This document shows positions 8,645-35,083 of a DNA stretch of 55,247 nt, one piece after another. A model generated the notes under the pieces. That model did no database searches and had not been told where the DNA came from. It worked only from the letters and a program-made list of their open reading frames with translations. Each line of letters starts with the position of its first letter. The first letter of the stretch is position 1. Origin of the DNA: Candidatus Woesebacteria bacterium. GTDB taxonomy: Bacteria; Patescibacteriota; Microgenomatia; Woykebacterales; 2-01-FULL-43-14. A program made the translations under genes and the position numbers. The stretch is from positions 1 through 55,247 of the forward strand of contig JAGVAV010000031.1 of NCBI GenBank assembly GCA_020060105.1. The letters are read 5' to 3'.

Positions 8645-10355
8645 AAAGAATCGAATTGAAATCAGCATTGATCAGAAAAAACTTACCGCTTTCGAAGGGC
8701 AAACCATCTTGGAAGTCGCCGACGCTTACGGTATTGAGATTCCCACTCTATGCTCTCATCCGGATTTAACCATTAAGGCCAGTTGTCGCGTCTGTTGCGT
8801 CGAAATATTGGGTAAAGAGGCTTTCGCCCCTGCCTGCTCCACAAAGGTCGAAAACGGAATGGAAATCATCACTCTCTCCCCCGATTTAAGAAGAGCGAGA
8901 GAAATAAACCTTGAACTTATCTTTGCCCAGCACTGCCAAAAATGTCCTGACTGCATTTGGCAATTTAACTGCCAGCTTTTAAACTTGGCCCGGAAATTCG
9001 AAATTCGAATTAACAAGTTCACCGACCGAAAAATCGCTTATCCGACTTATCAGTTTGGCCCGGCAATAACCTTTGACAGTTCAAAATGCATCGACTGCCG
9101 AAACTGTGTGGAGGTTTGTGAAAAACAAAATGTAAAATTTCTGGAAGTTAAAGAAAGAGGCCATCTTTTTCAGGTTGTCCCCTCCCGAAGTGAGGAAAGA
9201 GACTGTATTTATTGCGGACAATGCGTTGTTCACTGCCCTGTTGGAGCTCTAGAAGCGGTTGGGGAATTTGAGGAAGTGGAAAAACCTCTCTGGGAACAAG
9301 GAAAGACAGTCGTTTTTCAATTCGCCCCTTCGGTTCGGTCCAGTATTGGGGAAGAATTTGGCCTACCGTACGGAACAGTCGTAACCGAAAAACTAACTGC
9401 CGCCCTTCGTAAACTAGGCGCCGATCGAGTCTTTGACGTTGGGGTGGGAGCGGATTTCACCACCGTTGAGGAAGCTAAGGAACTCCTCGAACGGTTAGAA
9501 AGCCAAAAAAACCTTCCGATGTTTACCTCTTGTTGTCCCGCCTGGGTAAGGTACGTTGAATTTTTTCACCCTGAACTAATTCCTAATTTAACGACGACCC
9601 GTTCGCCTCACATTATTCTTGGCGGCCTGATCAAAACTTATTGGGCGGAAAAAGAAAGTGTCGACCCGGAAAAAATCGTGGTCGTCTCGATTATGCCTTG
9701 CACCGCCAAGAAGTATGAAATCAAAAGAGAAGAATTAAAAATTAATGGTTTAAGACCAGTTGATCACGTTTTAACCACTCGAGAACTCGCTTATTTATTG
9801 ATTAAACACAAGATAGATTTGAAAACCATTCCTCCAGAGCCACCAGACTATCCGTTAGGTTCATCCTCCGGCGCCGGCTTGATTTACGGCGCCAGCGGAG
9901 GGGTAATGGAATCCGCTTTAAGAACGGCTTTTGAGAAGTTAACTGGCCGGAAACTCCCAAGAATTGAATTTGAAGAAGTCCGAGGTTTACAGGAAGTGAA
10001 AAAGGCAAGCATTAAAATTGGCCAGCACCAACTCTCCCTGGCAGTGGTTAATGGAACAGGCAACGCCGAAACAATCATCAACCAGTTAAAGAGCAATCCT
10101 CGAGAATATGATTACATCGAGGTCATGGCCTGTTTCGGTGGTTGTATTGGCGGAGGAGGCCAACCGGTTCCAACTAACGCCAAGATAAGGCGAGCAAGAG
10201 CGAAAGCCTTATATCAAGCGGATGCGGCCAAAGAAATCCGCCAGGCCCATAAAAATCCTGAAGTCGTCGAAGCTTACCAAAAATACTTAACGACCAAAGA
10301 AAAAATTAGCCAAGTTTGCTTAACAAAGTTTTTCCCTAAAGAAAAAGAAAACTAA
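8637..10355 (+). CDS. hydA: [FeFe]-hydrogenase catalytic subunit
   Basis: All three H-cluster motifs are present: TSCCPAW, MPCTAKKYE and EVMACFGGCIGGGGQP. The N terminus has a 2Fe-2S ferredoxin fold, an HxxxCxxCxxxxxC site and two CxxCxxCxxxCP sites. The ATG overlaps the upstream stop (ATGAATAA). Confidence 0.92.
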   Translation: MNKKNRIEISIDQKKLTAFEGQTILEVADAYGIEIPTLCSHPDLTIKASCRVCCVEILGKEAFAPACSTKVENGMEIITLSPDLRRAREINLELIFAQHCQKCPDCIWQFNCQLLNLARKFEIRINKFTDRKIAYPTYQFGPAITFDSSKCIDCRNCVEVCEKQNVKFLEVKERGHLFQVVPSRSEERDCIYCGQCVVHCPVGALEAVGEFEEVEKPLWEQGKTVVFQFAPSVRSSIGEEFGLPYGTVVTEKLTAALRKLGADRVFDVGVGADFTTVEEAKELLERLESQKNLPMFTSCCPAWVRYVEFFHPELIPNLTTTRSPHIILGGLIKTYWAEKESVDPEKIVVVSIMPCTAKKYEIKREELKINGLRPVDHVLTTRELAYLLIKHKIDLKTIPPEPPDYPLGSSSGAGLIYGASGGVMESALRTAFEKLTGRKLPRIEFEEVRGLQEVKKASIKIGQHQLSLAVVNGTGNAETIINQLKSNPREYDYIEVMACFGGCIGGGGQPVPTNAKIRRARAKALYQADAAKEIRQAHKNPEVVEAYQKYLTTKEKISQVCLTKFFPKEKEN

Positions 10356-14086: not shown

Positions 14087-15355
14087 TTAAGAACGGGAAA
14101 ACTTTTTAGAAACCAATCGTGAGGTAAGCCAACTAAAAAGTAGTATCCCTAAGCTCACTAAAAATAGCCCCAAGGTCGGATTAGTTTCTCCGGAGTCAGG
14201 TAAAACCACCGCGTCACCCCCCTCATCTGGAGAAGGAGAACCTAGGCTTAAAACCTCAACCGAAAAACCTCTTGAATCCGATTGTCCGTTTTGGATAACC
14301 GTAACTTGGTGGTTCCCGGGATCTAGGCTTTCCGACGGGGTATAACTCCAGGTTCCATCATCGCCCACTGTTACTTGAGCCGTGATTTTTTGATTGCTCT
14401 CTATTTCAATGGTAATTGTTTCTCCCTTCTTGCCGGTTCCGGAAAAAGTTGGTCGATCTTGGGTAAACTTTTGTCCTTCGGTGGGAAATTGAATCGTTGG
14501 GGCCGAAACCTCTTTGGCCGTCTCGGCCGAAGAGGTGGTTCCCCCCGCGGCGGGGTTTAAATTCCCAAAACTAAAATTGCCCTCAGCCGAGTCGGTACTT
14601 GTCTCTGAAGGAGTCAAGGATGAGGAGGAAAAATCCCCCTCCTGGCCAAGAGTAATTGTCGGAGCGGGAGAGGCTCCCTGAACAGATAGTTTTCCGCTTG
14701 CCGAGCCTTCCGAACCGGCTTTAACCGTCACTGTTATTTGATCGTCTTCTTCAAAGTCGACATAAGTCGAAAGATCGGGCTTTCGGGCGCTACTTAGATT
14801 AACCAACCAATCTCCACTACCTCTAAGGTAGGTCGAAAGCGGCGCTCCTTTATCAAAACTTAAGTAAACCAAACCTTCTTTAGGCGGCTCACTACTTGAG
14901 GCGATAATCTTCCCGTAAGCCGGTTTTGTGTCAGGAACAGACTTGTCGGTGGTTGGCGCCGTTCGGGCTTGATAAGGCGAACCGTTATTATCATAAGTCT
15001 TTCCTTCGGAATCAATTTTAAAGTAGTAAATTTTATCCGGCTCCAAATTTTTCACCGTCACGTGGTGGGTAAACATCTTCTCTTGACCGGCCGAATCTCG
15101 ATCATCAAAAGCGGCTTTGTCCAAAGAAGAAACCGTCCCGTAAGTGACAAAGCCGACCGACGCCTTCTGAGGCGTTAACCAAGAAACGCTAAAGGAGTTA
15201 TCCGTGACGTTGGTTATCTTCAATTCTTGAGGAACGGCTGAAGGAGTGGCTTGGCTGAAAAAATTTGTTTTTTGGCTGATTAAATAAACCCCCGAAACGA
15301 TGCCGGCCAGTAAGATGATTAGTAAAAGAAAAATTAATAATTGTCTTAAACTCAT
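14087..15355 (-). CDS. Cell-surface protein with FN3 and Ig-like modules and an LPDSG sorting signal
   Basis: N-terminal signal/anchor, FN3-like module (ITNVTDNSFSVSWLT...YYFKI) and a C-terminal LPDSG (14189-14203) followed by a hydrophobic helix and a KKFSRS tail. Confidence 0.7.
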   Translation of the reverse strand: MSLRQLLIFLLLIILLAGIVSGVYLISQKTNFFSQATPSAVPQELKITNVTDNSFSVSWLTPQKASVGFVTYGTVSSLDKAAFDDRDSAGQEKMFTHHVTVKNLEPDKIYYFKIDSEGKTYDNNGSPYQARTAPTTDKSVPDTKPAYGKIIASSSEPPKEGLVYLSFDKGAPLSTYLRGSGDWLVNLSSARKPDLSTYVDFEEDDQITVTVKAGSEGSASGKLSVQGASPAPTITLGQEGDFSSSSLTPSETSTDSAEGNFSFGNLNPAAGGTTSSAETAKEVSAPTIQFPTEGQKFTQDRPTFSGTGKKGETITIEIESNQKITAQVTVGDDGTWSYTPSESLDPGNHQVTVIQNGQSDSRGFSVEVLSLGSPSPDEGGDAVVLPDSGETNPTLGLFLVSLGILLFSWLTSRLVSKKFSRS

Positions 15356-15475: not shown

Positions 15476-15505
15476 TTGACAACTGACTAAAAGGTCAGTT
15501 ATGAT
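15476..15505 (+). promoter_or_regulatory. lexA promoter with embedded palindromic operator
   Basis: TTGACA (15476-15481) and TATGAT (15500-15505) are separated by 18 nt. The spacer is filled by the perfect inverted repeat AACTGAC-N6-GTCAGTT (15481-15500). Confidence 0.5.
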
Positions 15506-15511
15506 AAGAGC

Positions 15512-16138
15512 ATGATTGACCGCAAAAAGGAAGAGGGTTTAACCAAAAGGCAAAAACAGACTTTGATGTTTATTTATAAATCTATCCGCTCCTGCGGTTT
15601 TCCTCCCACTTTGGAAAACCTGAGGGAAGAATTGGGGGTATCTTCAAATCAGGCCGTCTTAGATCTTTTAAAAATTCTCGAAAATAAAAAGTATATCAAG
15701 AAAAAGGAGGGAATGGCACGAGGACTGAAAATCACCCAAAAAGGCTATGACGAACTTAAGGTTTCCACCTATGTCCCAATGGTCGGGGTCACTTCTGCCG
15801 GACCTTTCATGGAAACTCTGGAACAGTATGGGGAGTGGAAACGGCTTTCAGGAGAGATAGCCAAACTAACCGACAAAGTAGGACTTTTCAAGGTTAATGG
15901 AGACTCGATGGTTGGAGCAGGAATTAACGATGGGGACATTGTGGTGGTCAAAGAAGATTCTGAATTTAAAAATGGCGATATCGTGTTAGCGAGAAATGAA
16001 GATGGAACCACGATCAAAAGATTTGTCAGCGCCAACGGTAAAACTTACCTGGCTCCAGAAAATCCTAAGTATGATAAAATTCCGATCACCCCGGAAACAA
16101 GGTTAGTGGGTAAGGTTATTTCCAAGTTGGAGATATAA
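15512..16138 (+). CDS. lexA: LexA repressor (S24 peptidase)
   Basis: N-terminal winged helix (LTKRQKQTLMFIYKSI...FPPTLENLREELGVSSNQAV), a catalytic Ser in VNGDSM and a Lys in TIKRF. Confidence 0.88.
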   Translation: MIDRKKEEGLTKRQKQTLMFIYKSIRSCGFPPTLENLREELGVSSNQAVLDLLKILENKKYIKKKEGMARGLKITQKGYDELKVSTYVPMVGVTSAGPFMETLEQYGEWKRLSGEIAKLTDKVGLFKVNGDSMVGAGINDGDIVVVKEDSEFKNGDIVLARNEDGTTIKRFVSANGKTYLAPENPKYDKIPITPETRLVGKVISKLEI

Positions 16139-16187
16139 ATGAGTACAGAAGAAGTTATGGAGCAAAAGTTTAGTCTTTGGGATAAGG

Positions 16188-16742
16188 ATGAAACATAAAA
16201 GAGAAACTGTCTATGCTTTCATAGATAGTCAAAATTTAAATTTAGGGACAAGTAAAAACATTTACCGCAGTAGGGAACTTATTTATAGAGGATGGGGGTT
16301 GGATTTCAAAAAGTTTAGAAAATATCTATCTGATAAGTTTAGAATTAAAAAAGCATTTTTATTTCTAGGTTATATTAAGCAAAATGAAGGAATGTATAGA
16401 TGTATGAAATCTTTTGGTTACGAGTTAATATTTAAGCCCACTGTTAAAGATAATCAGGGTAAACCAAAAGGCAACGTCGATGCAGAATTAGTCCTTCATT
16501 CTGCAAAAATAGAATATGAGAATTACGATAAAGCAGTTATTGTTTCAGGTGATGGGGATTTCTACTGTCTGCATGAATTCTTGAAGAAAAACAATAAATT
16601 ATTGAATATAGTTATTCCTAACCATCATTCAGAATCAAGTTTATTAAGAAAATTTCAAGAACACAAAATCTTTTTGTATCGAGAGAAAGATAATTTGGAA
16701 TTAGAGCATAAAAAGTGGGAGGCGTCGCACATAGACACGTAG
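16188..16742 (+). CDS. NYN (LabA-like, PIN-related) domain protein, putative RNase
   Basis: VYAFIDSQNLNLG at the N terminus, DAELV and VIVSGDGDFYCL together match the NYN acidic-residue pattern. The gene is AT-rich like the adjacent cas genes. Confidence 0.65.
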   Translation: MKHKRETVYAFIDSQNLNLGTSKNIYRSRELIYRGWGLDFKKFRKYLSDKFRIKKAFLFLGYIKQNEGMYRCMKSFGYELIFKPTVKDNQGKPKGNVDAELVLHSAKIEYENYDKAVIVSGDGDFYCLHEFLKKNNKLLNIVIPNHHSESSLLRKFQEHKIFLYREKDNLELEHKKWEASHIDT

Positions 16743-16961
16743 TCTATGGGTCGTATTCTCCCTAGTGATTAATTAAAATTATACTTGATTTTTCGAAGAT
16801 AGTCAAGATATCAAGCGGGCACCCACTCCTGAAACACGTTCTCGATTACAATACTCGCAAATTTTAATCTACGACGTAACGACCTTTTTGGGAATTGTTG
16901 TTTTGAAATGGTTTTTGAACAAGATTAGTTGGCAAAGTTATTTATAAGCTGGAGGTTTAAA

Positions 16962-19900
16962 ATGCAAACAAAAAATTTTATGAGCTTTTCTGATTTCACT
17001 AACCTTTACGCGCTCTCAAAAACTTTGCGGTTTGAATTGAGACCAATTGGACGTACAGAAGAATTTTTTAAGAAAAACAAAGTTTTTGAAAAAGATAAAA
17101 CTATTAATGACAGTTATAATCAGGCTAAACTGTATTTTGATGAAATGCATCGCCGATTGATTAGAGATGCCTTGAATACACAGAACACTTCTGCATTAGA
17201 TTACGAAAAATATGCAAAGCACTGGAAAGAACTCCAAAAAGACAAGGGTAAATATATTCAAAATTGGAAAGACGCGCAAAAGGAATTTAGGGAATGTATT
17301 TCCAATCTTTTGGATCAGCAAGCGGAACAGTGGAAATCGAAGTATGCGTCAGTTGGTTTGAATAAAGCTGACATAAAACAGAAAGGCACTGATTTTCTTA
17401 GCTCTGCAGGTATGGTGAAAATTTTAAAGAAAGAGTTTCCTAAAGAAGCGGAAAATCAACTTGTCAAAGAAGGTTTTCCAAGCTTATTTATTCAAAAGGC
17501 TGAAGCTCCAGAACAAAAGCAGTATATTTTTGATAGTTTTGACAGATTCTCAACATACTTAGCAAAATTTAACCAAACCCGAGATAATCTTTATAAAGAC
17601 GACGGAACTCCTACAGCAATAGCGACAAGGGTAGTCGAAAACTTTGTGGCTTTCTTGCAAAATCAAGCTATTTTTAACAACCACTACATATCGCTAAAAA
17701 GCGAGCTTGATTTCTCACGAGAAGAAATAGATTGTTTTACAGCAAATTACTATGTACGTTGCTTACTGCAGGAAGATATTGATGAGTATAACAAAACTAT
17801 CGGTCAGATAAACGCTCGCATTAAAGAACTTCGTGACCGTAAACAAAAAGAAAGCGATTTTAAAAAATCAGGCTATCCGTTGCTAAAATCTTTGAATAAG
17901 CAAATCCTCGGGAAAATTGAAAAGAAAAGGCAGTTCATTGAAAACAAAGCAGACGTCTTTCCCGCTTTTAGCGAACTTATTGAGCAGGCAAACGCACGAC
18001 TTACTGCATTAAGGCAGTTAATAAACAATCTTTGTGAAGAAGTGTTTGAAGAAGCGTATGGGGGCATTTACATAAAAAATACTGGTATTAATACCATTTC
18101 TCGCCGGTGGTTCGCAAGCTGGTATGATTTTGAAATTGCTTTACCACAAAAAAGTAAAAATGAGGAAGAATCAAAAGTAGTAACATTTGTATCGCTTCAG
18201 GATATTAAAGATACTTTAGAAAATAAGTTAAGTGGAGATATATTTAAGGAAGAGTATTACAAGAAAAAAATAATCAATAAAGAACAAAGCAATTGGAAAC
18301 AAATTTTGGCGATTCTACAAAATGAGTGGAATGAGCTTTTCAGCGAATACCAAAAGGCGCTTGAAAATACCAAGAAGCTTGATCTAAATTCTGTTTTCTC
18401 AAATAGTAAAGAACAAGTAGAAATTATTAAAAGTTTTGCAGATGCTTCTTTACGCGTTTATCAAGTGGTTAAATATTTTGCCCTCGAGCATAAAAAGTCG
18501 GATGAGATTCCCAGTTCTTACAGTACTGATTTTTATGAGGAGTTTGATAAGCAGTATAACAATTTTGAGTTTATTCCTTACTATAATGCATTAAGAAACT
18601 TTCTCACAAAAAAGGTAGTTGGGGAAAATAAAATAAAAATTAATTTTGAAAAAGGTAACTTACTTAACGGTTGGGCAGAAAGTCCTGAGGGTAATGCTCA
18701 ATTTTGTGGCTACATATTAAAAAAAGAAAATAAATATTTTTTAGGTATAACTGATCAACCTACAATACTTGATACTAAAGATAACCCCAGCTTAACCAAC
18801 ATAACAGATAAGGAATATTACGAAAAAATGGCTTACCGTCAACTGAAATCAACAACAATTTATGGTTCTGGCTATGAGGGTTTATATAACAGTAAGTATG
18901 CAAACGACAAAAAGTACATCAGTGAAAGTAAAATTATAGAGCGAGTTAAAAAATTACTGCAGGAAAAATATCTTACGCGTTTTCCGGAACTTAAACAGAT
19001 TATTGAGAAAGAATATAAAGATGCAAATGAACTTGCTAAAAACCTAGGAAACTTTAATTTATATAGTTTAGAATTTATTCCTGTCAATAAGAATTATATT
19101 GAAAAATTAACACATGATAAAAATGGAAGTATTAAATACTTATATATTTTTGAAATTGCGAACAAAGATCTCGGGAAAATAACACCTAGGAAATACAATA
19201 TACATTCTCTTTATTTTAAAAATCTTTTTAGTGAAGATAATTTAGAAAAACCGGTATTTAAATTAAGTGGTGGAGCAGAGATATTTTTTAGACCTAAAAC
19301 AGTGAATTTACCAAAGAAAAAAGATAAAGCAGGCAAAGATATTATAGATCATAAAAGATATGCCCAAGACAAGCTGTTCTTCCATTTACCAATTGTTATC
19401 AACTTTGGAGCTGGGAAGGTAGGAAAGTTTAACCAAGAGCTAAATAAAAAATTATTGGCTGGCAATAAGAATATAAATATAATAGGGATAGACCGCGGTG
19501 AAAAACATCTAGCCTACTATTCTGTCATAAATCAAAAAGGTGAGATTATTGAACAGGATAGTCTAAATGAAATAAATGGTGTCAACTACTATGGTCTGCT
19601 CCAAAAGCGTGAAAAAGAACGTTTGGAAAATCGTAAGTCTTGGCTCCCGCTTCAGCAAATTAAAGATCTCAAAAGAGGCTATATTTCACAGGTTGTTTAT
19701 AAAATTGTTAGGTTAGCAATAGAACATAACGCTATTATTGTATTAGAAGATCTTAATATGCGCTTTAAACAAATCCGCGGAGGTATTGAAAAAAGTATTT
19801 ATCAACAACTGGAGAAAGCATTAATTGATAAACTTGGCTACCTCGTTTTTAAAGATCGCAATGCAAAAGAAGTTGGAGGTGTCCTACAAGGGTATCAACT

Positions 19901-20753
19901 TTCAGCACCTTTCGAGTCATTCCAAAAGATAGGAAAGCAAACCGGCATCATATTCTATACTCAAGCAAGCTATACATCGGTTACAGATCCTTTAACTGGA
20001 TTTAGGAAAAATATTTACGTTAGTAATTCTGCTCCAATCGAAAAAATAAAAGTTGCAATAAATAATTTCGAGGAAATTGGTTGGGATGATGTAGTACAAA
20101 GCTACTTCTTCAACTATGACACGAAAAACTTTTCTAATGGTAATGATATCCAATCAAAAAAATGGAAAATCTATGCCAAAGTCCCGCGTATTAAAAGAGA
20201 AAAAGTTAACGGGTACTGGCAATACAACGATGTTGATCCAAACGATATGCTCGAAAAACTTTTTAGGCTCTATGAATTTAAAAACCTTCGCAGTAATATG
20301 CTGGAACAAATCCATGCAAAAGAAACTAATGGGGAGCTTCGAGGGGAACGTGATTTTGATAACAAGCCGAGAAATTTCTATCAGTCATTAGTTTATATCT
20401 TGAATCTTATTTTACAACTAAGAAATTCTACTTCAAAACAGATAAAACTGAACGAAAAAGAAGATGTTTATGAAACAGGAGAAGATGTTGACTTTATCGC
20501 TTCGCCAGCGTATCCATTTTTCACTACGCTTAGCAGTAAATCAAATAGTAATCTCGCGGGCTTCGAAAACCGCTTTACAGGACTAAATCACGATCAGGAA
20601 CAAAAAAAGTTTAATGGGGATGCAAATGGAGCTTATAACATCGCACGCAAGGGAATAATAATTCTTGAAAGGATTACTAAAAATTCAGATAAACCAAATC
20701 TCTATATAAGCAATGAAGATTGGGATAAATTTGTTTCTCAAAGTTACCCCTAG
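16962..20753 (+). CDS. cas12a: Cas12a (Cpf1), type V-A CRISPR effector nuclease
   Basis: GGAGG lies 7 nt upstream of the ATG at 16962; the track's TTG at 16929 is unlikely. The N terminus FTNLYALSKTLRFELRPIGRT is the hallmark Cas12a start. Split RuvC motifs are IIGIDRGE (D844), IVLEDLN (E929) and GDANGAYNIARKG (D1220). A KRY..DKLFFHLPI segment is present and no HNH insert. Length 1263 aa. Confidence 0.95.
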   Translation: MQTKNFMSFSDFTNLYALSKTLRFELRPIGRTEEFFKKNKVFEKDKTINDSYNQAKLYFDEMHRRLIRDALNTQNTSALDYEKYAKHWKELQKDKGKYIQNWKDAQKEFRECISNLLDQQAEQWKSKYASVGLNKADIKQKGTDFLSSAGMVKILKKEFPKEAENQLVKEGFPSLFIQKAEAPEQKQYIFDSFDRFSTYLAKFNQTRDNLYKDDGTPTAIATRVVENFVAFLQNQAIFNNHYISLKSELDFSREEIDCFTANYYVRCLLQEDIDEYNKTIGQINARIKELRDRKQKESDFKKSGYPLLKSLNKQILGKIEKKRQFIENKADVFPAFSELIEQANARLTALRQLINNLCEEVFEEAYGGIYIKNTGINTISRRWFASWYDFEIALPQKSKNEEESKVVTFVSLQDIKDTLENKLSGDIFKEEYYKKKIINKEQSNWKQILAILQNEWNELFSEYQKALENTKKLDLNSVFSNSKEQVEIIKSFADASLRVYQVVKYFALEHKKSDEIPSSYSTDFYEEFDKQYNNFEFIPYYNALRNFLTKKVVGENKIKINFEKGNLLNGWAESPEGNAQFCGYILKKENKYFLGITDQPTILDTKDNPSLTNITDKEYYEKMAYRQLKSTTIYGSGYEGLYNSKYANDKKYISESKIIERVKKLLQEKYLTRFPELKQIIEKEYKDANELAKNLGNFNLYSLEFIPVNKNYIEKLTHDKNGSIKYLYIFEIANKDLGKITPRKYNIHSLYFKNLFSEDNLEKPVFKLSGGAEIFFRPKTVNLPKKKDKAGKDIIDHKRYAQDKLFFHLPIVINFGAGKVGKFNQELNKKLLAGNKNINIIGIDRGEKHLAYYSVINQKGEIIEQDSLNEINGVNYYGLLQKREKERLENRKSWLPLQQIKDLKRGYISQVVYKIVRLAIEHNAIIVLEDLNMRFKQIRGGIEKSIYQQLEKALIDKLGYLVFKDRNAKEVGGVLQGYQLSAPFESFQKIGKQTGIIFYTQASYTSVTDPLTGFRKNIYVSNSAPIEKIKVAINNFEEIGWDDVVQSYFFNYDTKNFSNGNDIQSKKWKIYAKVPRIKREKVNGYWQYNDVDPNDMLEKLFRLYEFKNLRSNMLEQIHAKETNGELRGERDFDNKPRNFYQSLVYILNLILQLRNSTSKQIKLNEKEDVYETGEDVDFIASPAYPFFTTLSSKSNSNLAGFENRFTGLNHDQEQKKFNGDANGAYNIARKGIIILERITKNSDKPNLYISNEDWDKFVSQSYP

Positions 20754-20756
20754 GAT

Positions 20757-21296
20757 ATGGATTCAGCTATACCAATTTCTGCTATAAATGATTTTCTTTT
20801 CTGCCCGAAATCACTCTATCTGCATAGTGTGTATAGCTCCTTTGCGACTAACACCTATCATGACACACCGCAAATCCAAGGCGGAATCGCTCACGAAAAT
20901 ATTGAAAAAGGACAATACACTACCTCCAAACATGTTTTGCAGGGACTATCTGTTTACAGTGAAAGACTAGGGGTAAAAGGGAAAATAGATATTTACGATA
21001 TGGAAAAGGGGTTTTTAATCGAACGGAAATACAGAGTAAAACAGCTTTACAAAGGCTTTCAATACCAGCTCTATGCCCAGATGTATTGCCTGGAAGAAGC
21101 GGGATTTTCTGTGAAGCGGTTGTTTATTCAATCGCTTTCTGATAACAAACGCTATGAAATTGCCCTTCCGGCCGAAAAAGAAAAACAGGAATTTGAAAAA
21201 GTAATTGCCGAAATGAAAGCGTTTAACGCCATCGCTCTTTCAAATCACTCGTGTAGTCGTTGTCAAAATAACATTTATGGATTGTTAAATTGGTAA
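20757..21296 (+). CDS. cas4: Cas4 (RecB-like nuclease)
   Basis: N-terminal Cys (FLFCPKS), D..ExK nuclease motif (IDIYD...LIERKY), QxxxY (QYQLYAQ) and C-terminal CSRC. Sits 3 nt after cas12a. Confidence 0.85.
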   Translation: MDSAIPISAINDFLFCPKSLYLHSVYSSFATNTYHDTPQIQGGIAHENIEKGQYTTSKHVLQGLSVYSERLGVKGKIDIYDMEKGFLIERKYRVKQLYKGFQYQLYAQMYCLEEAGFSVKRLFIQSLSDNKRYEIALPAEKEKQEFEKVIAEMKAFNAIALSNHSCSRCQNNIYGLLNW

Positions 21297-21300
21297 AACC

Positions 21301-22254
21301 ATGTTGACACTTCCTGATTTCAAAGAAAAAAGAATTTTATCTGTTCAGGCCGATTACGGCCACGATAACTTATTGCAGTTAATCAATGACAACATTCGTT
21401 TCGCCCGCGACGGTGAGGGAGTGAGTCAAATATCAAGCCATTTAGTTTTTGCTGTTTTTATTATTGGGGACATGAGTGTTACCACCACTCTTCTTAAAAA
21501 GCTTACTGAACAAGGTATTTCCATTTTTTTTCTCAATCATAATCTGGCCGTAAAGGCGGTGATGATAGCGGAAGCGGAAGGAAATTACCTCCTTCGTCAA
21601 AAGCAGTACACCACAGCCGATGAGTTGAATATTGCAAGAAGAATTGTCGAAAATAAAATAATTTCTCAAGAGGCAGTTCTGAAAAAATGTCAGAAGGCGT
21701 ACCAGCTAAAAGTATTTGAGCGGGCCAGAGTAATGCTAAAAACTGCTAAAGATAGAGAAAAACTACTTGGGATAGAGGGAAACGTGGGGAAAGAATATTT
21801 CCAATCGTTGTTTGCCGATCTGGGCTGGGTTCGCCGTGCTCCGCAAACAAAAGAAGATATCCCTAACCTATTGCTTGATATTGGCTATACCTACCTCTTT
21901 AACTACTGCGACGCGCTCTTGCGCCTGTTTGGCTTTGATACCTACAAAGGCTACTATCACCAGTTATTTTTTCAGCGAAAATCTTTGGTATGTGATGTTA
22001 TGGAGCCGATGCGTCCGATCATTGACTATCAATTACTCAAAAGCTTCAATCTTAAGCAAGTAAAAGAAAAAGATTTTGTCTTTAAAAACGGCAGATTTGA
22101 CTTTAAAGACGGGTTTAAAACCAGTAAATTGTACAGTCCAATATTTTTGGAGACAATAAATGGGCGCAAAGAAGAAATTTACACTTATGTGCTTAACTTT
22201 TACCGTTATATAATGGACAACAAAAAGTATCAATTCCCGAAATTTATTATCTAG
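21301..22254 (+). CDS. cas1: Cas1 integrase
   Basis: 317 aa with GIEGNVGKEYF and GYYHQLFFQRKSLVCDVMEPMRPIID, which follow the Cas1 E/H/D-E active-site pattern. Sits 4 nt after cas4. Confidence 0.9.
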   Translation: MLTLPDFKEKRILSVQADYGHDNLLQLINDNIRFARDGEGVSQISSHLVFAVFIIGDMSVTTTLLKKLTEQGISIFFLNHNLAVKAVMIAEAEGNYLLRQKQYTTADELNIARRIVENKIISQEAVLKKCQKAYQLKVFERARVMLKTAKDREKLLGIEGNVGKEYFQSLFADLGWVRRAPQTKEDIPNLLLDIGYTYLFNYCDALLRLFGFDTYKGYYHQLFFQRKSLVCDVMEPMRPIIDYQLLKSFNLKQVKEKDFVFKNGRFDFKDGFKTSKLYSPIFLETINGRKEEIYTYVLNFYRYIMDNKKYQFPKFII

Positions 22255-22258
22255 ATCT

Positions 22259-22540
22259 ATGCTTATTGTCTCGTACGATTTTGCCAACGATAAAACCAGA
22301 ACAAGGTTTGCCAAGTTTTTAAAAAAGTATGGCTGGCGGATGCAGTATTCCGTGTTTGTGGTGAAAAACAGCCCCAGGATTTTACGCAACATTTTGACGG
22401 AAATCGATGCCCGCTATCAAAAGTTGATTAAGGACACTGACAGCATCGTGATTTTTCCGGTGTGTCTGAGTTGTAAAGGAAAAATAATCAGGTACGGTTG
22501 CGCAAGACATGAGCTTGACAATGTGGTATACTTTGAGTAA
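22259..22540 (+). CDS. cas2: Cas2
   Basis: 93 aa with an MLIVSYDF...RTRFAKFLKKYGWRMQYSVFVV ferredoxin-like Cas2 signature. Sits 4 nt after cas1. Confidence 0.85.
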   Translation: MLIVSYDFANDKTRTRFAKFLKKYGWRMQYSVFVVKNSPRILRNILTEIDARYQKLIKDTDSIVIFPVCLSCKGKIIRYGCARHELDNVVYFE

Positions 22541-22722
22541 GAACACTAAGTCAAATACGGGTAGCACATTGACAACTAATGACTAAAGTGGAAGTGTTAC
22601 TGTTTATATTTGAAGAAACCTTAGTCTTTATGAGCCTGTTTTTTGTTATTTTGAACTTAAAACCTAAAGTCTTCGCCAGCTGGCGGATTGCATCTTTAGC
22701 TTGTTCTGACAAGAAACAGGCT
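22541..22722 (+). promoter_or_regulatory. CRISPR leader (AT-rich)
   Basis: 182 nt between the cas2 stop and the first repeat. It contains a repeat-like half-site (22551-22570) and the palindrome CGCCAGCTGGCG (22674-22685). The promoter itself was not pinpointed. Confidence 0.5.
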
Positions 22723-23256
22723 CTCAAATACAAATAGTCCATTTCTACTTTTGTAGATAGCCAACTTCTTTTGCATTGCGATCTTCTCAAATACAAATAG
22801 TCCATTTCTACTTTTGTAGATAGATTTCTATTTGGCGGGGCGGCCCAACCTCAAATACAAATAGTCCATTTCTACTTTTGTAGATCACAAATAGTACCCA
22901 TCATCTGTCACTCAAATACAAATAGTCCATTTCTACTTTTGTAGATTCTTCCATTTCGCTTGCCTCTCCCAAACTCAAATACAAATAGTCCATTTCTACT
23001 TTTGTAGATCTGCCGAGAGGATCGGCTCCGGCGACTCAAATACAAATAGTCCATTTCTACTTTTGTAGATTACTGGTAGAAGTGTTGCTTTGTGCCTCAA
23101 ATACAAATAGTCCATTTCTACTTTTGTAGATCTACTAGGGCTCCAAACGGCGGTAGCTCAAATACAAATAGTCCATTTCTACTTTTGTAGATGAGATAGC
23201 ACTCTCTGCAAGTCTTTGCTCTCAAATACAAATAGTCCATTTCTACTTTTGTAGAT
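22723..23256 (+). CRISPR. CRISPR array: 9 identical 36-nt repeats and 8 spacers (25-28 nt)
   Basis: Repeat is CTCAAATACAAATAGTCCATTTCTACTTTTGTAGAT, starting at 22723, 22786, 22850, 22911, 22974, 23035, 23096, 23157 and 23221. Its 3' end folds as TCTAC-TTTT-GTAGA, which is the Cas12a crRNA handle and sets plus-strand orientation. Confidence 0.97.
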
Positions 23257-23277
23257 ACGAAACAACCAAACTAACAC

Positions 23278-23306
23278 TTGACAGGACTTTTTTTCTCTTT
23301 TATGAT
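23278..23306 (+). promoter_or_regulatory. Sigma70-like promoter for the surface-protein gene
   Basis: TTGACA (23278-23283), a 17-nt spacer and TATGAT (23301-23306). GGAGG lies at 23326-23330, upstream of the ATG at 23347. Confidence 0.5.
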
Positions 23307-23346
23307 TAAAATAGAGTTTAGTTTCGGAGGAAGAAAGTAAAACTCA

Positions 23347-23769
23347 ATGAAAATCCTGCCAAACCTCATAAATGAAAAGCTGTGGAAATCCTTATCCTTA
23401 ATCTTCTTTTTGTTTTTGCTTTTGTTTACCTTTTCTCTCTTAAAGCCCGGGGCGGCGGAAGCGGGGCAAATTACGGATATCAGCCTTTCGGTCAATACCG
23501 CCACGAAATCGGCTACCGCCACCTATAGCGCCACGTTTACTGTCGAAAATGAAATCCCCTCTTCAGGCGGCCGGATCAACCTGGAATTCTTTGGCCCAAA
23601 CTGGAATTATCCTAATTTTAATAGCGCCACGGTTGGCAGCGAAACCTCCCCGAATACCATTAGCATTTATTCTCGAAGTTACAATTATATTATTTTCAGC
23701 ACCTCCCAGGCCATCAGCGCCGGGACAGAGGTCACTTTAAAAATTGAAAACTCACCAATCCTTCGGTAG
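23347..23769 (+). CDS. N-terminal fragment (signal peptide plus first module) of a frameshifted LPETG surface protein
   Basis: Signal peptide LWKSLSLIFFLFLLLFTFSLLKPGAAEA. The frame ends at TAG 23767, but the neighbouring frame continues the protein from 23748. Confidence 0.6.
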   Translation: MKILPNLINEKLWKSLSLIFFLFLLLFTFSLLKPGAAEAGQITDISLSVNTATKSATATYSATFTVENEIPSSGGRINLEFFGPNWNYPNFNSATVGSETSPNTISIYSRSYNYIIFSTSQAISAGTEVTLKIENSPILR

Positions 23770-23861
23770 GCGGTTATTATTTCGCCCGTCTCTATACTTC
23801 CCAGTGGAGCACCCCTATTGACGGATCAAGCAACTGGGGCGGAAACTACCAAACTCCTTAT

Positions 23862-26800
23862 GTGGAAATCGGCAGTAACACCAACGTCAAAGGAACGGTG
23901 ACCAAGGCGGATGGAACCACGCCGATTCCTTTTGTTAATGTCTACATCTATAATAGTAACTGGACAAGCTATTACTACACCTACACGGATAAAAACGGAA
24001 ATTATGGTTTTGGTGACATCCCGGCCGGCAGTTATACCTTCTCCGTCTACTCGCCTCCTGCAACCAACGGAGAAAACTACTATCCCCCGGCTAACTCCAC
24101 CATCACCGTGGAAAGCTCTGGGGCAACCACGAAAAACATAAGTTTCTTGGCGGCCACTAAAACCCTCACCGGCCAAATTACCCGAACTTCCACCACCGGG
24201 GCGACAATCGCCGTTACCGACGCCAACGTTTGGGTCTCCAAGATTGGCGGTAATGGCTGGGCGAACGCTAACACCGACTCTTCAGGCAATTACTCCCTGA
24301 CTTTAACGGGAGGTTCCTGGTATATCGGCGTTAACCCCACTACCTGGCCTTCAGATTGGACTTACACTTATTCCAGTGAAACCATTTCTTTCGCGGACGA
24401 CACCACCACGGAAAGTAAAACTAAAAATTACACCGTGGAATCTCTTAACTCTACGGTCAACGGAAGTATTAAAAAGCCTGACGGATCTACCCCGGCTCAG
24501 TATTCCGTTGGTCTGAACTTATCCAACACCAAAAATCAATGGTATTACGCTTCGGTGGACGCTTCGGGCAATTTCACCGTCAAGGTCACCGCCGGAACCT
24601 ACTCCGTCAGTGGTTGGGTCACCGACTCAAATTACTCTTTTCCCAAGGTCGCAACTTTCACGGTTAATGAGAGTGAAACCAAAACTCTCGAGACCATCAC
24701 TTTGGTTGAAAAATCCGACACTATCTCGGGAACGATCTTGGATAATTTCGGCTCGCCGGTGGCCGGAGCTTCGATCAATGGCTGGAAAAGCAACGGCAGC
24801 TGGGACTGGTCAAGTGCCACCACCGATACGAACGGAAATTACACTCTAAAAGTCACTCCCGGCACTTGGCAAGTGAACGCTTGGCCTCAATGGGATTCAG
24901 GTTATGTTTACTCAGGACAGCCAGTCTCCGTCAGCGTCACTTCCGGAGTCACCGCGACTAAAAACTTTACTTTCCAAAAAGCCACCGTCACCGTTAATGG
25001 CACGGTCACTGATCCGGACGGTAACGTGCTCACTACTCTCTATGCCTGGGCCTCAGCCAACGACGGCTCCCAGCAGTGGAGCAATGTTGGGGCTTCGGTT
25101 AACAACGGAAAATTCACCATGAAAATTCCCGCCGGAACTTGGGATATTAGCGTCTACATCTACGCCGCTGAATACGGCAGCCCAGATCCAAAGAGCATCA
25201 CCGTCGTTGATAATGAAACGGTCTCCGTCACTCTTGCCGCGGTTAAGTACGACGCCACGATCAGCGGCACGGTTTACGATGAATCAAACAATCCAGTCAC
25301 TAGCACTTGGATGAGCATCTACGCCACTAAAGGTAAATACGGCGCTTGGCAGTCGGCTAACTTTGATCAAGCCAATGGAACTTATTCAATCAAAGTTTCG
25401 GCCGGAACTTGGAAGTTAGGCTGGTGGGTTGATCCCAACTTGGGCTACAGCTCAGGAACCGGCCAAGACACTGAGGTTACCGTCGCTTCCGGAGAAACTA
25501 AAACTCACAATATTACCCTTAAAAAAGCGGATTCTACCATCAGCGGAACCGCAAAAAATTCAGAAGGCGGGGCGGTGGCTTGGGCTTGGGTTAACGCCGA
25601 TTCGCGAGACCCGAACGAAAAAGTTTCGGCTGACACCTACTATTATAGTAACGGTACTTCCAGCGCGAGCACCGGAGAATACACCCTCAAGGTTCCGGCC
25701 GGAACCTACTGGGTTGGGGCAAACATGTGGCCCGGGTCTGGCTATATCAATCCAAAACGAGAAAAAGTCAGCGTCGACGCCAATAATCCGGCCACGGTTA
25801 ACCTAGTTTTCCGCAAGGCTGACGCCAGCATAACCGGTAAGGTCACCTTAGACGGCACTGGGACAAGCGCTTTTATCAGCGCCTATAGTGAAGACGGCGG
25901 ATACGCCGAAACCAATTCTAGCAACGCTGGTGAGTACACTCTTTCCGTTTCCAGTGAAACCAAGTGGCATCTGAAAGCGATCAAACAAGTCGATAAAGAC
26001 ATTTATAAATCCAGCGAGGCAATCGTCGATCTGACCCAGGCCACTACAGGCAGTCAGGATTTGGTTCTGGCCAAAAAGAGCTATTCCTTACCCGACGCCG
26101 TCACCGTTACCTTTGACGCGACAAAACAACAAACGATCAAGCTTGACGATGAAACGACTATCAACATCCCAGCCAACACCGCCACCTCTTCCGGAAACGT
26201 GACCCTAACCGCTCAACCTGAAGCCAATCTGGCCGAAGAAGCCGACGCCAAACCCGTTTCATACGGCTACGATCTTAACATCGTCGATTCCAACGGGAAG
26301 GAAATTACCGAATTTACCGGTAACGTCACCATCGAGGTTAAATACGAAGACGAATGGATTACCGACAGTGGTTTAATTGACGAGAAAGAGCTAAAAGCCG
26401 CTTACTATGACGAATCAGCTGGAACCTGGATAGAGCTGGGCAGCGTGACGGTCAATGAAACGGAAAAAACAGTCACCTTCCAAACTGACCACTTCACAAA
26501 ATTTGCCGTAGTCGGAGCGGCCGATACCACCCCGCCCGCCGCGCCCACTAACCAAGCCGCGAGTGCCGGGGACAGTAAGGTAAGCTTAAGTTGGACCAAT
26601 CCAACTGACGCGGACCTTAACGGAATCAATATTTATCGCTCAACCACTTCTGGAGTCCTGGGAACGCGAGTTCATAGCAGCGTCACGGGGACTAGTAAAG
26701 ACGATACGGACCTAACTAACGGGACAGCTTACTATTACACCTTAAGAGCGGTGGATAAATCAAACAATGAGTCTACCAACACCACTCAAATCTCCGCCAC

Positions 26801-26966
26801 TCCTTCAGCGGCCGCTTCTACAACAACTACTACCACTACAACTACAAGTACAAGTAGCAGTAATCTTCCCGAAACCGGCCGAGAAACAATTTCGCTAGTA
26901 ACTATTTTAACGCTCCTTATTATCAGTTTCTTATACTTAACCTTTCCCCACCGGCGTTTTTCCTAA
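23862..26966 (+). CDS. Large surface protein with carboxypeptidase-regulatory-like repeats, FN3 and a Thr-rich stalk, ending in an LPETG sorting signal (C-terminal part of the split gene)
   Basis: Many repeats of the form G(T/S)(V/I)xDxxGNPV...V...tdxxGnYtl. Also FN3 (VSLSWTNPTDADLNGINIYR), a poly-Thr stalk, LPETG (26865-26879), a TM helix and an HRRFS tail. This frame is open from 23748. Confidence 0.75.
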   Translation: MEIGSNTNVKGTVTKADGTTPIPFVNVYIYNSNWTSYYYTYTDKNGNYGFGDIPAGSYTFSVYSPPATNGENYYPPANSTITVESSGATTKNISFLAATKTLTGQITRTSTTGATIAVTDANVWVSKIGGNGWANANTDSSGNYSLTLTGGSWYIGVNPTTWPSDWTYTYSSETISFADDTTTESKTKNYTVESLNSTVNGSIKKPDGSTPAQYSVGLNLSNTKNQWYYASVDASGNFTVKVTAGTYSVSGWVTDSNYSFPKVATFTVNESETKTLETITLVEKSDTISGTILDNFGSPVAGASINGWKSNGSWDWSSATTDTNGNYTLKVTPGTWQVNAWPQWDSGYVYSGQPVSVSVTSGVTATKNFTFQKATVTVNGTVTDPDGNVLTTLYAWASANDGSQQWSNVGASVNNGKFTMKIPAGTWDISVYIYAAEYGSPDPKSITVVDNETVSVTLAAVKYDATISGTVYDESNNPVTSTWMSIYATKGKYGAWQSANFDQANGTYSIKVSAGTWKLGWWVDPNLGYSSGTGQDTEVTVASGETKTHNITLKKADSTISGTAKNSEGGAVAWAWVNADSRDPNEKVSADTYYYSNGTSSASTGEYTLKVPAGTYWVGANMWPGSGYINPKREKVSVDANNPATVNLVFRKADASITGKVTLDGTGTSAFISAYSEDGGYAETNSSNAGEYTLSVSSETKWHLKAIKQVDKDIYKSSEAIVDLTQATTGSQDLVLAKKSYSLPDAVTVTFDATKQQTIKLDDETTINIPANTATSSGNVTLTAQPEANLAEEADAKPVSYGYDLNIVDSNGKEITEFTGNVTIEVKYEDEWITDSGLIDEKELKAAYYDESAGTWIELGSVTVNETEKTVTFQTDHFTKFAVVGAADTTPPAAPTNQAASAGDSKVSLSWTNPTDADLNGINIYRSTTSGVLGTRVHSSVTGTSKDDTDLTNGTAYYYTLRAVDKSNNESTNTTQISATPSAAASTTTTTTTTTSTSSSNLPETGRETISLVTILTLLIISFLYLTFPHRRFS

Positions 26967-34636: not shown

Positions 34637-35083
34637 TTAAACAACCGCCTCTTCTATCTGTCCCCCCGCTTTTTCTATTTTCTCTTTGGCAGACTTAGTC
34701 ACCGCTACTTTTACCGTTAACGGAACACTAACTTCTCCACTCCCGAGCACCTTAACTTTGGCCTTAACTTCGTTTGGTTTGATCAAACCGGTCCTTATCA
34801 AACCGGCCTTATCAACCACTTCATTTTCTTTAAATTTTTTACTTAAAGTATCTAGGTTAATCTCTAAGAGTTTCGAAACTTTTGGCGGATTTCCTATTCC
34901 CCGGCGCTGGGGCAGCCTTCTTACCAACTGGCTAATTTTAAAACTGGCCCCAACTTTTTCCCGCGCCTTTTGCCCCTTTATACCTCGACCGGCAGTTTTC
35001 CCTTTACCGCTGGCATGGCCGCGACCGACTCTTTTACTTCTTCTTATGTAACTTTTTAACTTTTTAAAATTATTTAACTGCAT
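34637..35083 (-). CDS. rplO: 50S ribosomal protein L15
   Basis: [24 protein letters not shown]. The start overlaps the rpsE stop by 14 nt. Confidence 0.93.

Follow-up and report, generated by a model that had tools for sequence, protein, structure and literature searches.

The window, that is, the whole 55,247-nt stretch of DNA that was analysed, contains a genuine and apparently intact type V-A CRISPR-Cas locus with the following features:

16962..20753, + strand: cas12a (cpf1), the single effector, 1263 aa (TIGR04330, Pfam and PDB matches, AlphaFold models)
19290..19358, + strand: WED-III segment of cas12a, R777-R799, PKTVNLPKKKDKAGKDIIDHK (HMMER alignments)
19491-19493, + strand: RuvC-I D844 of cas12a, invariant in a 40-sequence alignment
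19746-19748, + strand: RuvC-II E929, invariant in the same alignment
19848..19878, + strand: self-protospacer of spacer 1 inside cas12a (25-nt exact match)
20421-20423, + strand: Nuc R1154, invariant in the same alignment
20619-20621, + strand: RuvC-III D1220, invariant in the same alignment
20757..21296, + strand: cas4 (type V subtype), 179 aa (TIGR04328)
21301..22254, + strand: cas1, 317 aa (TIGR00287)
22259..22540, + strand: cas2, 93 aa (TIGR01573)
22541..22722, + strand: leader, 182 nt, between cas2 and the first repeat
22723..23256, + strand: CRISPR array of nine repeats and eight spacers (exact repeat copies)
22759..22785, + strand: spacer 1, leader-proximal, AGCCAACTTCTTTTGCATTGCGATCTT, cas12a-derived and reversed

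The cas12a open reading frame occupies 16929..20753, with the ATG of the 1263-aa frame at 16962 and a GGAGG Shine-Dalgarno sequence 5' of it at 16951-16955. The initial annotation had described one 1263-aa effector with the N-terminal string FTNLYALSKTLRFELRPIGRT, four co-directional genes 3-4 nt apart, a 182-nt leader and a nine-repeat array on the same strand. All of this was recovered: the string is present in the protein, the gaps between cas12a, cas4, cas1 and cas2 are 3, 4 and 4 nt, and the leader and the nine exact repeat copies lie where listed above.

In profile searches, the effector scored 634 bits against TIGR04330 (cutoff 300), and the REC1, RuvC_1 and NUC domains were found with Pfam. 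Its top sequence matches in PDB are FnCas12a and ReChb (8QWD/8QWE/8QWF), a laboratory reconstruction of a resurrected ancestral Cas12a that gives the best match both in sequence (E 3e-131) and in fold (E 3e-45). AlphaFold models of the two protein halves reached pLDDT values of 84.3 and 85.0, and a structure search with both halves matched only Cas12a structures. The earlier assignment to Cas12a from split RuvC motifs is thus borne out by the family profile, by the predicted structure and by the invariance of D844, E929 and D1220 among relatives. The protein is about 20-34% identical over structural alignments to FnCas12a, AsCas12a and LbCas12a (PDB 5MGA/5NG6, 5B43, 5XUS), with which it shares the fold, the RuvC D/E/D residues and the Nuc arginine; the gene order cas12a-cas4-cas1-cas2-array, the 36-nt repeat with a 3' UCUAC-N4-GUAGAU handle and the lack of a tracrRNA are also common to these systems. 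Unlike in characterised Cas12a, the WED lysine that reads the PAM (K613 in Fn, K548 in As) aligns to a proline, P575, so the PAM preference may differ, and position -19 of the handle is C instead of A.

The adaptation module, described as full in the initial annotation, retains its catalytic residues. Cas4 scored 202 bits against TIGR04328 (cutoff 70) and possesses four cysteines (C16, C111, C166 and C169), as well as D78, E89 and K91, each present in at least 90% of 131 homologs. Cas1 passed the generic model TIGR00287 (139 bits, cutoff 71.7) and fell 14 bits short of the subtype model TIGR04329 (286.3 bits, cutoff 300); its E159, H220 and D232 are retained by at least 90% of 119 homologs. 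Finally, Cas2 scored 56.3 bits against TIGR01573 (cutoff 24.5), and its D7 is conserved.

The 36-nt repeat, CTCAAATACAAATAGTCCATTTCTACTTTTGTAGAT, is present in nine identical copies on the plus strand; no copies were found in 100 shuffles, and no minus-strand copy with up to three mismatches occurs anywhere in the window. As previously noted, the repeat ends in the Cas12a handle, UCUAC-UUUU-GUAGA-U; in the fold (-4.8 kcal/mol), UCUAC pairs with GUAGA over 5 bp to form a hairpin, leaving UUUU as the loop. The eight spacers are, in order, 27, 28, 25, 27, 25, 25, 25 and 28 nt long, and no natural protospacers for spacers 2-8 were found in viral contigs, phages or plasmids. The earlier report of nothing complementary to the repeat also held, as no anti-repeat was found between 15500 and 24500, where the longest exact complement, inside cas12a at 18415, spans 10 nt. 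The end of cas2 holds a site (22504-22532) that resembles a promoter with an extended -10 element and reads into the leader; it was called by consensus match only, CPR promoters being uncharacterised.

Judged from its SecY relatives and a missing ribosomal protein gene, the host is a Microgenomates-like member of CPR/Patescibacteria, in agreement with the CPR-like context proposed before. SecY shares 82% identity with a Patescibacteria protein and about 67% with those of Woykebacteria and Woesebacteria, and the S5 gene runs straight into L15, the L30 gene between them being absent. The accompanying remark that the rarity of CRISPR in CPR makes the locus notable was overstated: at least 160 related loci were found, mostly in CPR MAGs. 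The 2015 study of Zetsche is said to include genomes with CPR/Patescibacteria Cas12a systems. The present Cas12a, at most 53% identical to any relative found, is a divergent protein within a CRISPR type already known in CPR, where Cas12a has been documented since 2015 (PMC6509639). The 36-nt repeat design, with the same 3' handle, recurs in nearly all of 98 related arrays. For example, the system of Candidatus Roizmanbacteria GW2011_GWA2_37_7 (Chen et al. 2019, PMC6509639) has the same host radiation, repeat design and adaptation module, whereas its Cas12a is only 38% identical to the one described here, which at 1263 aa also lies below the median length of the clade, about 1320 aa. In contrast to some Roizmanbacteria with a Cas12a/Cas12a' pair, there is one effector gene; it encodes an intact RuvC-II glutamate, in which it differs from 'group 1' of those proteins.

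The WED-III segment, where the pre-crRNA RNase residues of characterised Cas12a reside, is shortened and non-canonical, a feature absent from the initial annotation. Aligned with HMMER to FnCas12a and ReChb, the protein shows gaps opposite the stretches with Fn H843 and K852 and has D796 opposite K869, the loop being about 17 aa shorter than in characterised Cas12a; ReChb, by contrast, keeps the canonical long loop with its histidine. By alignment, this shortened form is a clade-wide trait. Short segments of 15-24 aa were found in 95 of 134 loci parsed, including the Roizmanbacteria locus above (PKTEKDKLESKKDKKGNKVIDHKRY), and the canonical form of 38-39 aa (..H..NKN..IKD[KR]R[FY]) in about ten, among them the non-CPR Sedimentisphaerales and Spirochaetes loci, the others being metagenome contigs. 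Histidine is absent from the segment in 49 of 119 clade members, and H797 is common to 37 of them. H843, K852 and K869 have no aligned counterparts in this protein or in most of its CPR-rich clade, so crRNA processing by Cas12a itself is an assumption here, and its chemistry may differ from that of characterised Cas12a; maturation would proceed via other residues, presumably a Lys-rich loop conserved as KK(D/E)K and, in this protein, H797-K798. The earlier description of a tracrRNA-independent, single-RNA-guided system hence stands in respect of the anti-repeat, whereas its self-processing component is presumed.

The missing canonical histidine and lysines would also fit a locus that is intact in sequence and impaired in function, either decaying or dependent on a host or accessory RNase, and such impairment would account for a tolerated self-spacer as well. 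A predicted RNase, an NYN-domain protein, is encoded directly upstream with a low GC content like that of cas12a, and NYN genes adjoin cas12a in a few other loci, for instance upstream in L142 and downstream in L122. We consider this scenario very unlikely. NYN genes represent only three of 105 upstream neighbours of cas12a (the window included), a rarity that argues against a general solution for the clade, and the short loop occurs in about 70% of related loci; many of these possess large arrays, with as many as 75 repeats, which implies long-term function. Moreover, the other catalytic residues are intact, the nine repeats are identical, and the self-spacer is already accounted for by its orientation.

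Spacer 1, the origin of which was missed by the initial annotation, matches cas12a over 25 of 25 nt at 19852-19876 (chance expectation of a 25-nt self-match about 2e-9), 2.8 kb upstream of the array. The self-protospacer encodes K964-G973 of Cas12a. On the plus strand, a canonical TTTA PAM lies immediately 5' of the match (19848-19851), and the two mismatched nucleotides, 19877-19878, are at the PAM-distal end; this PAM is deduced from a single flipped self-protospacer, and with TTTV at 2.7-3.7% of positions the chance of a coincidental TTTV is about 3-4%. As transcribed, the spacer runs antisense to the coding strand of cas12a, the 5' flank of its target is ACAC, and the mismatches become spacer positions 1-2, in the seed.

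Spacer 1 is most plausibly an accident of acquisition that the cell tolerates, flipped on integration and harmless. Among the chromosomal sites that supply spacers is the CRISPR-Cas region itself, and a flipped spacer begins at a canonical PAM and is inserted in reverse (PMC5059440); orientation is normally enforced by Cas4 binding the PAM end (bioRxiv 10.1101/2022.05.30.494039). Chromosomal spacers are nearly always leader-proximal and PAM-poor, lethal ones being lost (PMC5059440), and a missing PAM is a recognised route to self-spacer tolerance (PMC6509639, PMC6990116). Likewise, the self-spacers of type I-F Pectobacterium (PMC5059440) and of Roizmanbacteria with fragmented CasY (PMC6509639) are chromosome-derived and leader-adjacent, with the PAM complement at the far end of the spacer, and are non-lethal because no PAM is present in the transcribed sense. 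The present case differs in belonging to type V-A, in its intact Cas4 and effector, in having the effector gene as source, and in being a single event rather than multiple self-spacers with a broken nuclease. This reading leaves the two mismatched nucleotides, PAM-distal in the flipped spacer, unaccounted for.

These two mismatches could instead be allelic differences, if spacer 1 came from a near-identical cas12a of a competing strain, plasmid or phage and recorded a conflict between CRISPR-bearing elements; the low GC content of NYN and cas12a (30-33% versus about 44%) shows that the module moves horizontally. Such an origin appears very unlikely, as searches for the 25-mer in viral contigs and in the 160 related loci listed gave no match, the closest cas12a protein among the relatives found is only 53% identical and thus no candidate for a near-identical foreign allele, the bases of the spacer would turn Gly973 of the conserved GGVL motif into cysteine, and a reversed spacer would be useless against that allele too.

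An autoregulatory guide that tunes Cas12a, by antisense pairing with its mRNA or by PAM-independent, non-cleaving binding of its gene, is highly improbable: crRNA-like RNAs do regulate cas genes in other systems, and the lack of a PAM and the seed mismatches would block cleavage yet leave 25 nt of pairing with the sense strand or mRNA, but DNA binding by Cas12a requires a PAM and a matched seed, and Cas12a is not known to act on RNA. Conservation is also lacking, with no match to own cas12a among 1,883 spacers of the 98 related arrays, and no CreR-like degenerate repeat typical of regulatory mini-arrays was found upstream of cas12a. The TTTA on the opposite strand points to ordinary acquisition followed by a flip, and the newest array position is expected of a transient accident (PMC5059440).

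Very probably, then, this is a chromosomal class 2 type V-A system of a CPR host, apparently functional and carrying a flipped self-spacer. Transcription of the array would begin on the cas2/leader side and run in the direction of the cas genes, and the hairpin at each repeat 3' end would be bound by Cas12a with no need for a tracrRNA. By analogy with established Cas12a biology, the mature crRNA would carry a repeat-derived 5' handle and about 25 nt of spacer, a 5' T-rich PAM and the single RuvC site (D844/E929/D1220, with Nuc R1154) would direct cutting of both invader DNA strands, and Cas4-Cas1-Cas2 would insert new spacers at the leader end. Spacer 1 would have been captured from the TTTA-flanked protospacer in cas12a and integrated in reverse; its crRNA would find ACAC where a PAM is required, together with two mismatches in the seed, so that self-cleavage would not occur and the cell survived. 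Among 1,891 spacers in 99 arrays (the window included), it is the only self-cas12a case, the other cross-matches being AT-rich, low-complexity and at chance level. The leader-proximal position of this self-spacer suggests that the adaptation module has been recently active.

The locus consists of four co-directional ORFs separated by gaps of only 3, 4 and 4 nt, in agreement with the spacing described in the initial annotation, followed by a leader of 182 nt and a repeat array placed on the same strand as the cas genes:

16951-16955, + strand: Shine-Dalgarno sequence GGAGG, upstream of the cas12a ATG
16962-20753, + strand: cas12a, 1263 aa counted from the ATG at 16962
20757-21296, + strand: cas4
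21301-22254, + strand: cas1
22259-22540, + strand: cas2
22723-23256, + strand: CRISPR array, 36-nt repeat CTCAAATACAAATAGTCCATTTCTACTTTTGTAGAT in nine exact copies

The product of the first gene, previously read as a single 1263-aa Cas12a protein, matches the TIGR04330 profile with 634.3 bits (cutoff 300, E 4e-190). Pfam recognizes the REC1, RuvC_1 and NUC domains in this protein and no HNH domain, even with E-values up to 5. Sequence comparison with solved structures ranks FnCas12a and the resurrected Cas12a ReChb as the closest relatives. In an alignment of 40 Cas12a sequences, the RuvC-I D844 (IGIDRGEK), RuvC-II E929 (VLEDLN) and RuvC-III D1220 (GDANGAYN) residues are invariant, as is the Nuc arginine R1154 (QLRNS), and D844 is aligned with D917 of FnCas12a (Fn numbering hereafter). 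Structure prediction, which had been proposed as a check, was performed on two separate halves of the protein, and both of them match Cas12a only. For residues 541-1263 (pLDDT 84.3, pTM 0.76), the best 50 matches in PDB are all Cas12a, with E-values down to 3e-45 and query-normalised TM-scores of 0.54-0.64. For residues 1-580 (pLDDT 85.0), 42 out of 42 significant PDB matches are Cas12a, with the best fit to crRNA-bound binary complexes (TM-score up to 0.61). The predicted protein is bilobed, with the REC/NUC fold of solved Cas12a structures.

The full adaptation module claimed initially is also present, since the cas4-cas1-cas2 genes adjoining cas12a combine profile matches with retained catalytic residues. 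Cas4 matches the type V-specific profile TIGR04328 (202 bits, cutoff 70) and Cas2 matches TIGR01573 (56 bits, cutoff 24.5). Cas1 passes the generic profile TIGR00287 (139 bits, cutoff 71.7) and scores 286.3 bits with the subtype profile TIGR04329, 14 bits under its cutoff of 300. As judged against 117-131 homologs from related loci, the conserved residues are kept in all three proteins, namely D78/E89/K91 in Cas4, E159/H220/D232 in Cas1, and D7 in Cas2; Cas4 also has four cysteines. The C-terminal CxxC motif of Cas4 is formed by C166 and C169 (window 21252-21272, Cas4 residues 166-172), and most homologs have their C-terminal cysteines at alignment positions 169 and 172, the latter occupied by N172 in the window protein. 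This offset is probably a three-residue register shift and not a loss of Fe-S ligands.

The nine repeats delimit eight spacers of 25-28 nt each, and no copy of the repeat occurred in 100 shuffles of the sequence. The Cas12a-type handle noted at the repeat end does fold: at the 3' end of the repeat RNA, UCUAC pairs with GUAGA in a 5-bp hairpin that is closed by a UUUU loop (-4.8 kcal/mol). Homology searches retrieved at least 160 related cas12a loci, mostly from Patescibacteria MAGs, of which 98 have arrays; nearly all of these arrays among the matches listed have the same 36-nt repeat, with the 3' end ATTTCTAC-NNNN-GTAGAT. Inspection by eye had detected nothing complementary to the repeat, and our search bears this out, as exact complementarity to the repeat extends over no more than 10 nt anywhere within 15500-24500 and no copy with up to three mismatches is present on the opposite strand of the whole window. 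Among Rfam families, the window contains a single tRNA and neither CRISPR-DR nor tracrRNA. As is characteristic of type V-A systems, the locus thus appears to be free of a tracrRNA or anti-repeat. Taken together, the profiles, invariant catalytic residues, fold, adaptation genes, repeat hairpin and absence of an anti-repeat support the classification of the locus as type V-A (Cas12a/Cpf1).

By analogy with characterised members of the family, the array would be transcribed from the leader side, where a promoter-like site is found at 22504-22532, and the transcript would be matured by Cas12a to crRNAs of about 44 nt with the 5' end at or near CAUUUCUACUUUUGUAGAU. These crRNAs would direct RuvC cutting of double-strand DNA dependent on a T-rich PAM, and new spacers would be added at the leader end. 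The best sigma-70-like site of the region (23278-23306, + strand, TTGACA and TATGAT separated by 17 nt, 11 out of 12 positions) is located 22 nt past the last repeat and is probably the promoter of the following gene (23347-23769) instead of the array.

The leader-proximal spacer 1 (22759-22785), the newest one given its position next to the leader, corresponds to 25 consecutive nucleotides of cas12a itself (19852-19876, encoding K964-G972), with a chance expectation of about 2e-9 for such a match. As transcribed, the spacer 1 crRNA would be complementary to the cas12a sense strand; in this sense, the target has ACAC in the PAM position and mismatches to positions 1-2 of the spacer, and cleavage of cas12a by this crRNA is not expected. 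On the opposite strand, TTTA, a canonical Cas12a PAM, directly precedes the 25-nt match (TTTV background, 2.7-3.7% of positions), and the two mismatches lie at the PAM-distal end of the flipped protospacer. The simplest reading is that spacer 1 derives from a PAM-flanked chromosomal protospacer, 2.8 kb from the array, that was taken by Cas4-Cas1-Cas2 and inserted backwards.

Flipped spacers are known to start at the canonical PAM and to carry the complement of the PAM at their far end (PMC5059440). Chromosomal spacers, for which the CRISPR-Cas region itself is an acquisition site, are almost always leader-proximal and are depleted in canonical PAMs because lethal ones are lost (PMC5059440). 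Since binding of the PAM end by Cas4 normally enforces spacer orientation (bioRxiv 10.1101/2022.05.30.494039), the backward insertion of spacer 1 would be a rare error, and a missing PAM is a recognised route to self-spacer tolerance (PMC6509639, PMC6990116). The flipped spacer is a clear footprint left in nature, indicating that a CPR Cas4-Cas1-Cas2 module has been recently active and samples DNA beside its own array, that orientation errors occur despite Cas4, and that errors of this kind are the ones that persist among spacers taken from the host chromosome. It is a neat natural case of a mistake in adaptation.

Two oddities were observed at the self-target (window 19877-19891, flank on the - strand). 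Where spacer 1 has the mismatched bases AG, the genome has their reverse complement, CT, on that strand; this resembles a 2-nt inversion and may be a coincidence. A TTGTAGGA motif located 8 nt from the self-target is similar to the repeat 3' end TTGTAGAT; it was rejected as a sign of recombination, as it consists of conserved Leu-Gln codons and the similarity is probably due to chance.

It is unlikely that the reversed self-spacer serves as an antisense regulator of cas12a. Autoregulators of cas genes that resemble crRNAs are conserved across related loci and usually adjoin a degenerate repeat and pair partially with a cas promoter. The target of spacer 1 is in the cas12a coding region and not in a promoter, and its flanking repeats are perfect. 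A comparable match to the own cas12a gene was found for none of 1,883 spacers from the 98 related arrays among the matches listed, and no CreR-like degenerate repeat was identified upstream of cas12a, the best handle-like matches being located elsewhere with 4-5 mismatches. Spacer 1 therefore does not have the attributes of a regulatory self-targeting guide. Cross-matches between spacers and cas12a genes among the relatives were likewise rejected: spacer 16 of locus L106, considered as conserved targeting of cas12a in loci L128 and L051, and the spacers of loci L084 and L055 matching just upstream of cas12a are AT-rich low-complexity strings, and all other matches of this kind are AT-rich, of low complexity and at chance level.

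A foreign origin of spacer 1 is without support, as its 25-mer is absent from the viral contigs and from the at least 160 related loci; a match in a marine Paraglaciecola virus (25 out of 27 positions, E 0.5) was judged coincidental. For spacers 2-8, exact-match scans of viral contigs gave chance-level matches only, as did a BLAST search of phage and plasmid records with the complete array. The sole protospacer found for the array is the self-derived one, with its TTTA on the strand opposite the transcribed sense.

Characterised Cas12a enzymes cut their own pre-crRNA via three WED-III residues, which are H843, K852 and K869 in FnCas12a (PMC11127173). The corresponding segment of the window protein, between R777 and R799, both invariant, contains 21 aa, PKTVNLPKKKDKAGKDIIDHK, whereas canonical enzymes have 38-39 aa there. 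The Fn H843 and K852 stretches are aligned with gaps, and K869 stands opposite D796. This short WED-III form is present in 95 of the 134 parsed related loci among the matches listed (a clade of about 70% of these loci, window included), and one of them is L038 from Roizmanbacteria, a genome on record since 2015. The canonical ..H..NKN..IKD[KR]R[FY] form occurs in about ten loci among the matches listed, where the named genomes are non-CPR (L064 from Sedimentisphaerales and L075 from Spirochaetes) and the others are metagenome contigs. Within the clade, a histidine is absent from the WED-III segment in 49 out of 119 proteins, H797 is common to 37 out of 119, and there is moderate conservation of a KK(D/E)K motif. 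The many large arrays of its members, with up to 75 repeats among the matches listed, clearly indicate a functional clade.

For the window Cas12a, self-processing and PAM reading are predicted by family analogy, not residue by residue; a pre-crRNA self-processing site is a property of characterised members and not a criterion for the type V-A classification. In the CPR-dominated short-loop clade, a short Lys-rich loop stands in place of the canonical His/Lys/Lys RNase site. That this clade matures its crRNAs by a different chemistry or with another RNase, such as the NYN protein encoded next to cas12a, appears rather improbable; if true, self-processing by H843/K852/K869 would not be valid for much of the natural diversity of Cas12a. 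The clade-wide non-canonical RNase loop is the one lead of wider significance, bearing on crRNA maturation outside a few model enzymes. The PAM-reading WED lysine of characterised Cas12a enzymes (Fn K613; K548 in AsCas12a; motif GWDxNK) stands opposite P575 of the window protein (residues 572-580, WAESPEGNAQ, nt 18684-18695). The clade consensus at this site is GWxxSxExNxQ, and no alignment was obtained for the PI-domain lysine (Fn K671; PI domain, about residues 590-700). The details of PAM preference in this clade may deviate from TTTV. When translated with table 11, cas12a contains in-frame TGA codons in L063 and L069, the Vampirococcus and Peribacteria loci, and in the metagenome contig L149, which is consistent with an alternative code, UGA being translated as Gly in some of these lineages.

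Two genes precede cas12a on the same strand:

15512-16138, + strand: LexA repressor (TIGR00498, 141 bits), second gene upstream of cas12a
16188-16742, + strand: NYN-domain gene (predicted RNase), 219 nt upstream of cas12a

The NYN gene (30.5% GC, GC3 28.6%) and cas12a (33.0% GC, GC3 28.7%) form a low-GC island, with the flanks and the chromosome at about 44% GC and cas4, cas1 and cas2 intermediate. This composition suggests horizontal acquisition of the island and a joint transfer of the two genes. The NYN protein is an obvious candidate helper for crRNA maturation, and its homologs adjoin cas12a in locus L142 (200 nt upstream, 44% identity) and locus L122 (just downstream, 38% identity). As an upstream neighbour of cas12a, NYN was found in only 3 of 105 loci among the matches listed, window included; we therefore rejected it as a conserved partner, and such rare adjacency indicates that it is not a general RNase solution for the clade. 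LexA was rejected as well, with no homolog linked in any of the at least 160 related loci.

The window is chromosomal: besides LexA and the NYN-domain protein, it encodes EF-G, EF-Tu, a histidine kinase and a group A6 [FeFe] hydrogenase, and it includes a ribosomal protein operon. The CPR-like host context perceived initially is upheld by two lines of evidence. SecY has 82% identity to a protein of a 'Patescibacteria group bacterium' and about 67% to those of Woykebacteria and Woesebacteria. Among the contiguous genes L6, L18, S5, L15, SecY and Adk (window 34637-35687, - strand), S5 (35070-35687) and L15 (34637-35083) overlap, so that an L30 gene has no space between them, and a missing L30 gene is a recognised CPR trait. 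The host is thus a member of the CPR/Patescibacteria, probably of the Microgenomates group. The rarity of CRISPR in CPR turned out to be a weak reason for calling the locus remarkable, since systems of this kind are well known: Cas12a was described from Dojkabacteria, Parcubacteria and Roizmanbacteria in 2015, with a further report in 2019 (PMC6509639), and the related loci retrieved here are mostly from Patescibacteria. The nearest protein to the window Cas12a among 5.8 billion has 53% identity, which makes it a divergent ortholog, and no identical protein is on record; one more divergent and compact (1263 aa) Cas12a in a family already sampled well among CPR bacteria has some value for ortholog mining and is not conceptually new.

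Elsewhere in the window, the following features were identified:

7610-10355, + strand: NuoF-like flavoprotein, then group A6 NADH-dependent [FeFe] hydrogenase
14087-15355, - strand: large repetitive protein, probably secreted or surface
23862-26966, + strand: large repetitive protein, probably secreted or surface
48366-50090, - strand: large repetitive protein, probably secreted or surface
52549-55095, - strand: large repetitive protein, probably secreted or surface

The first of these suggests a module for fermentative hydrogen metabolism, the hydrogenase scoring 681 bits, just under the equivalog cutoff of 765 bits. The large repetitive proteins display Ig-like or adhesin-like repeats, a beta-helix with a dockerin, and a Thr-rich C-terminal anchor, and their genes have a GC content of 49-50%, above the rest of the window.
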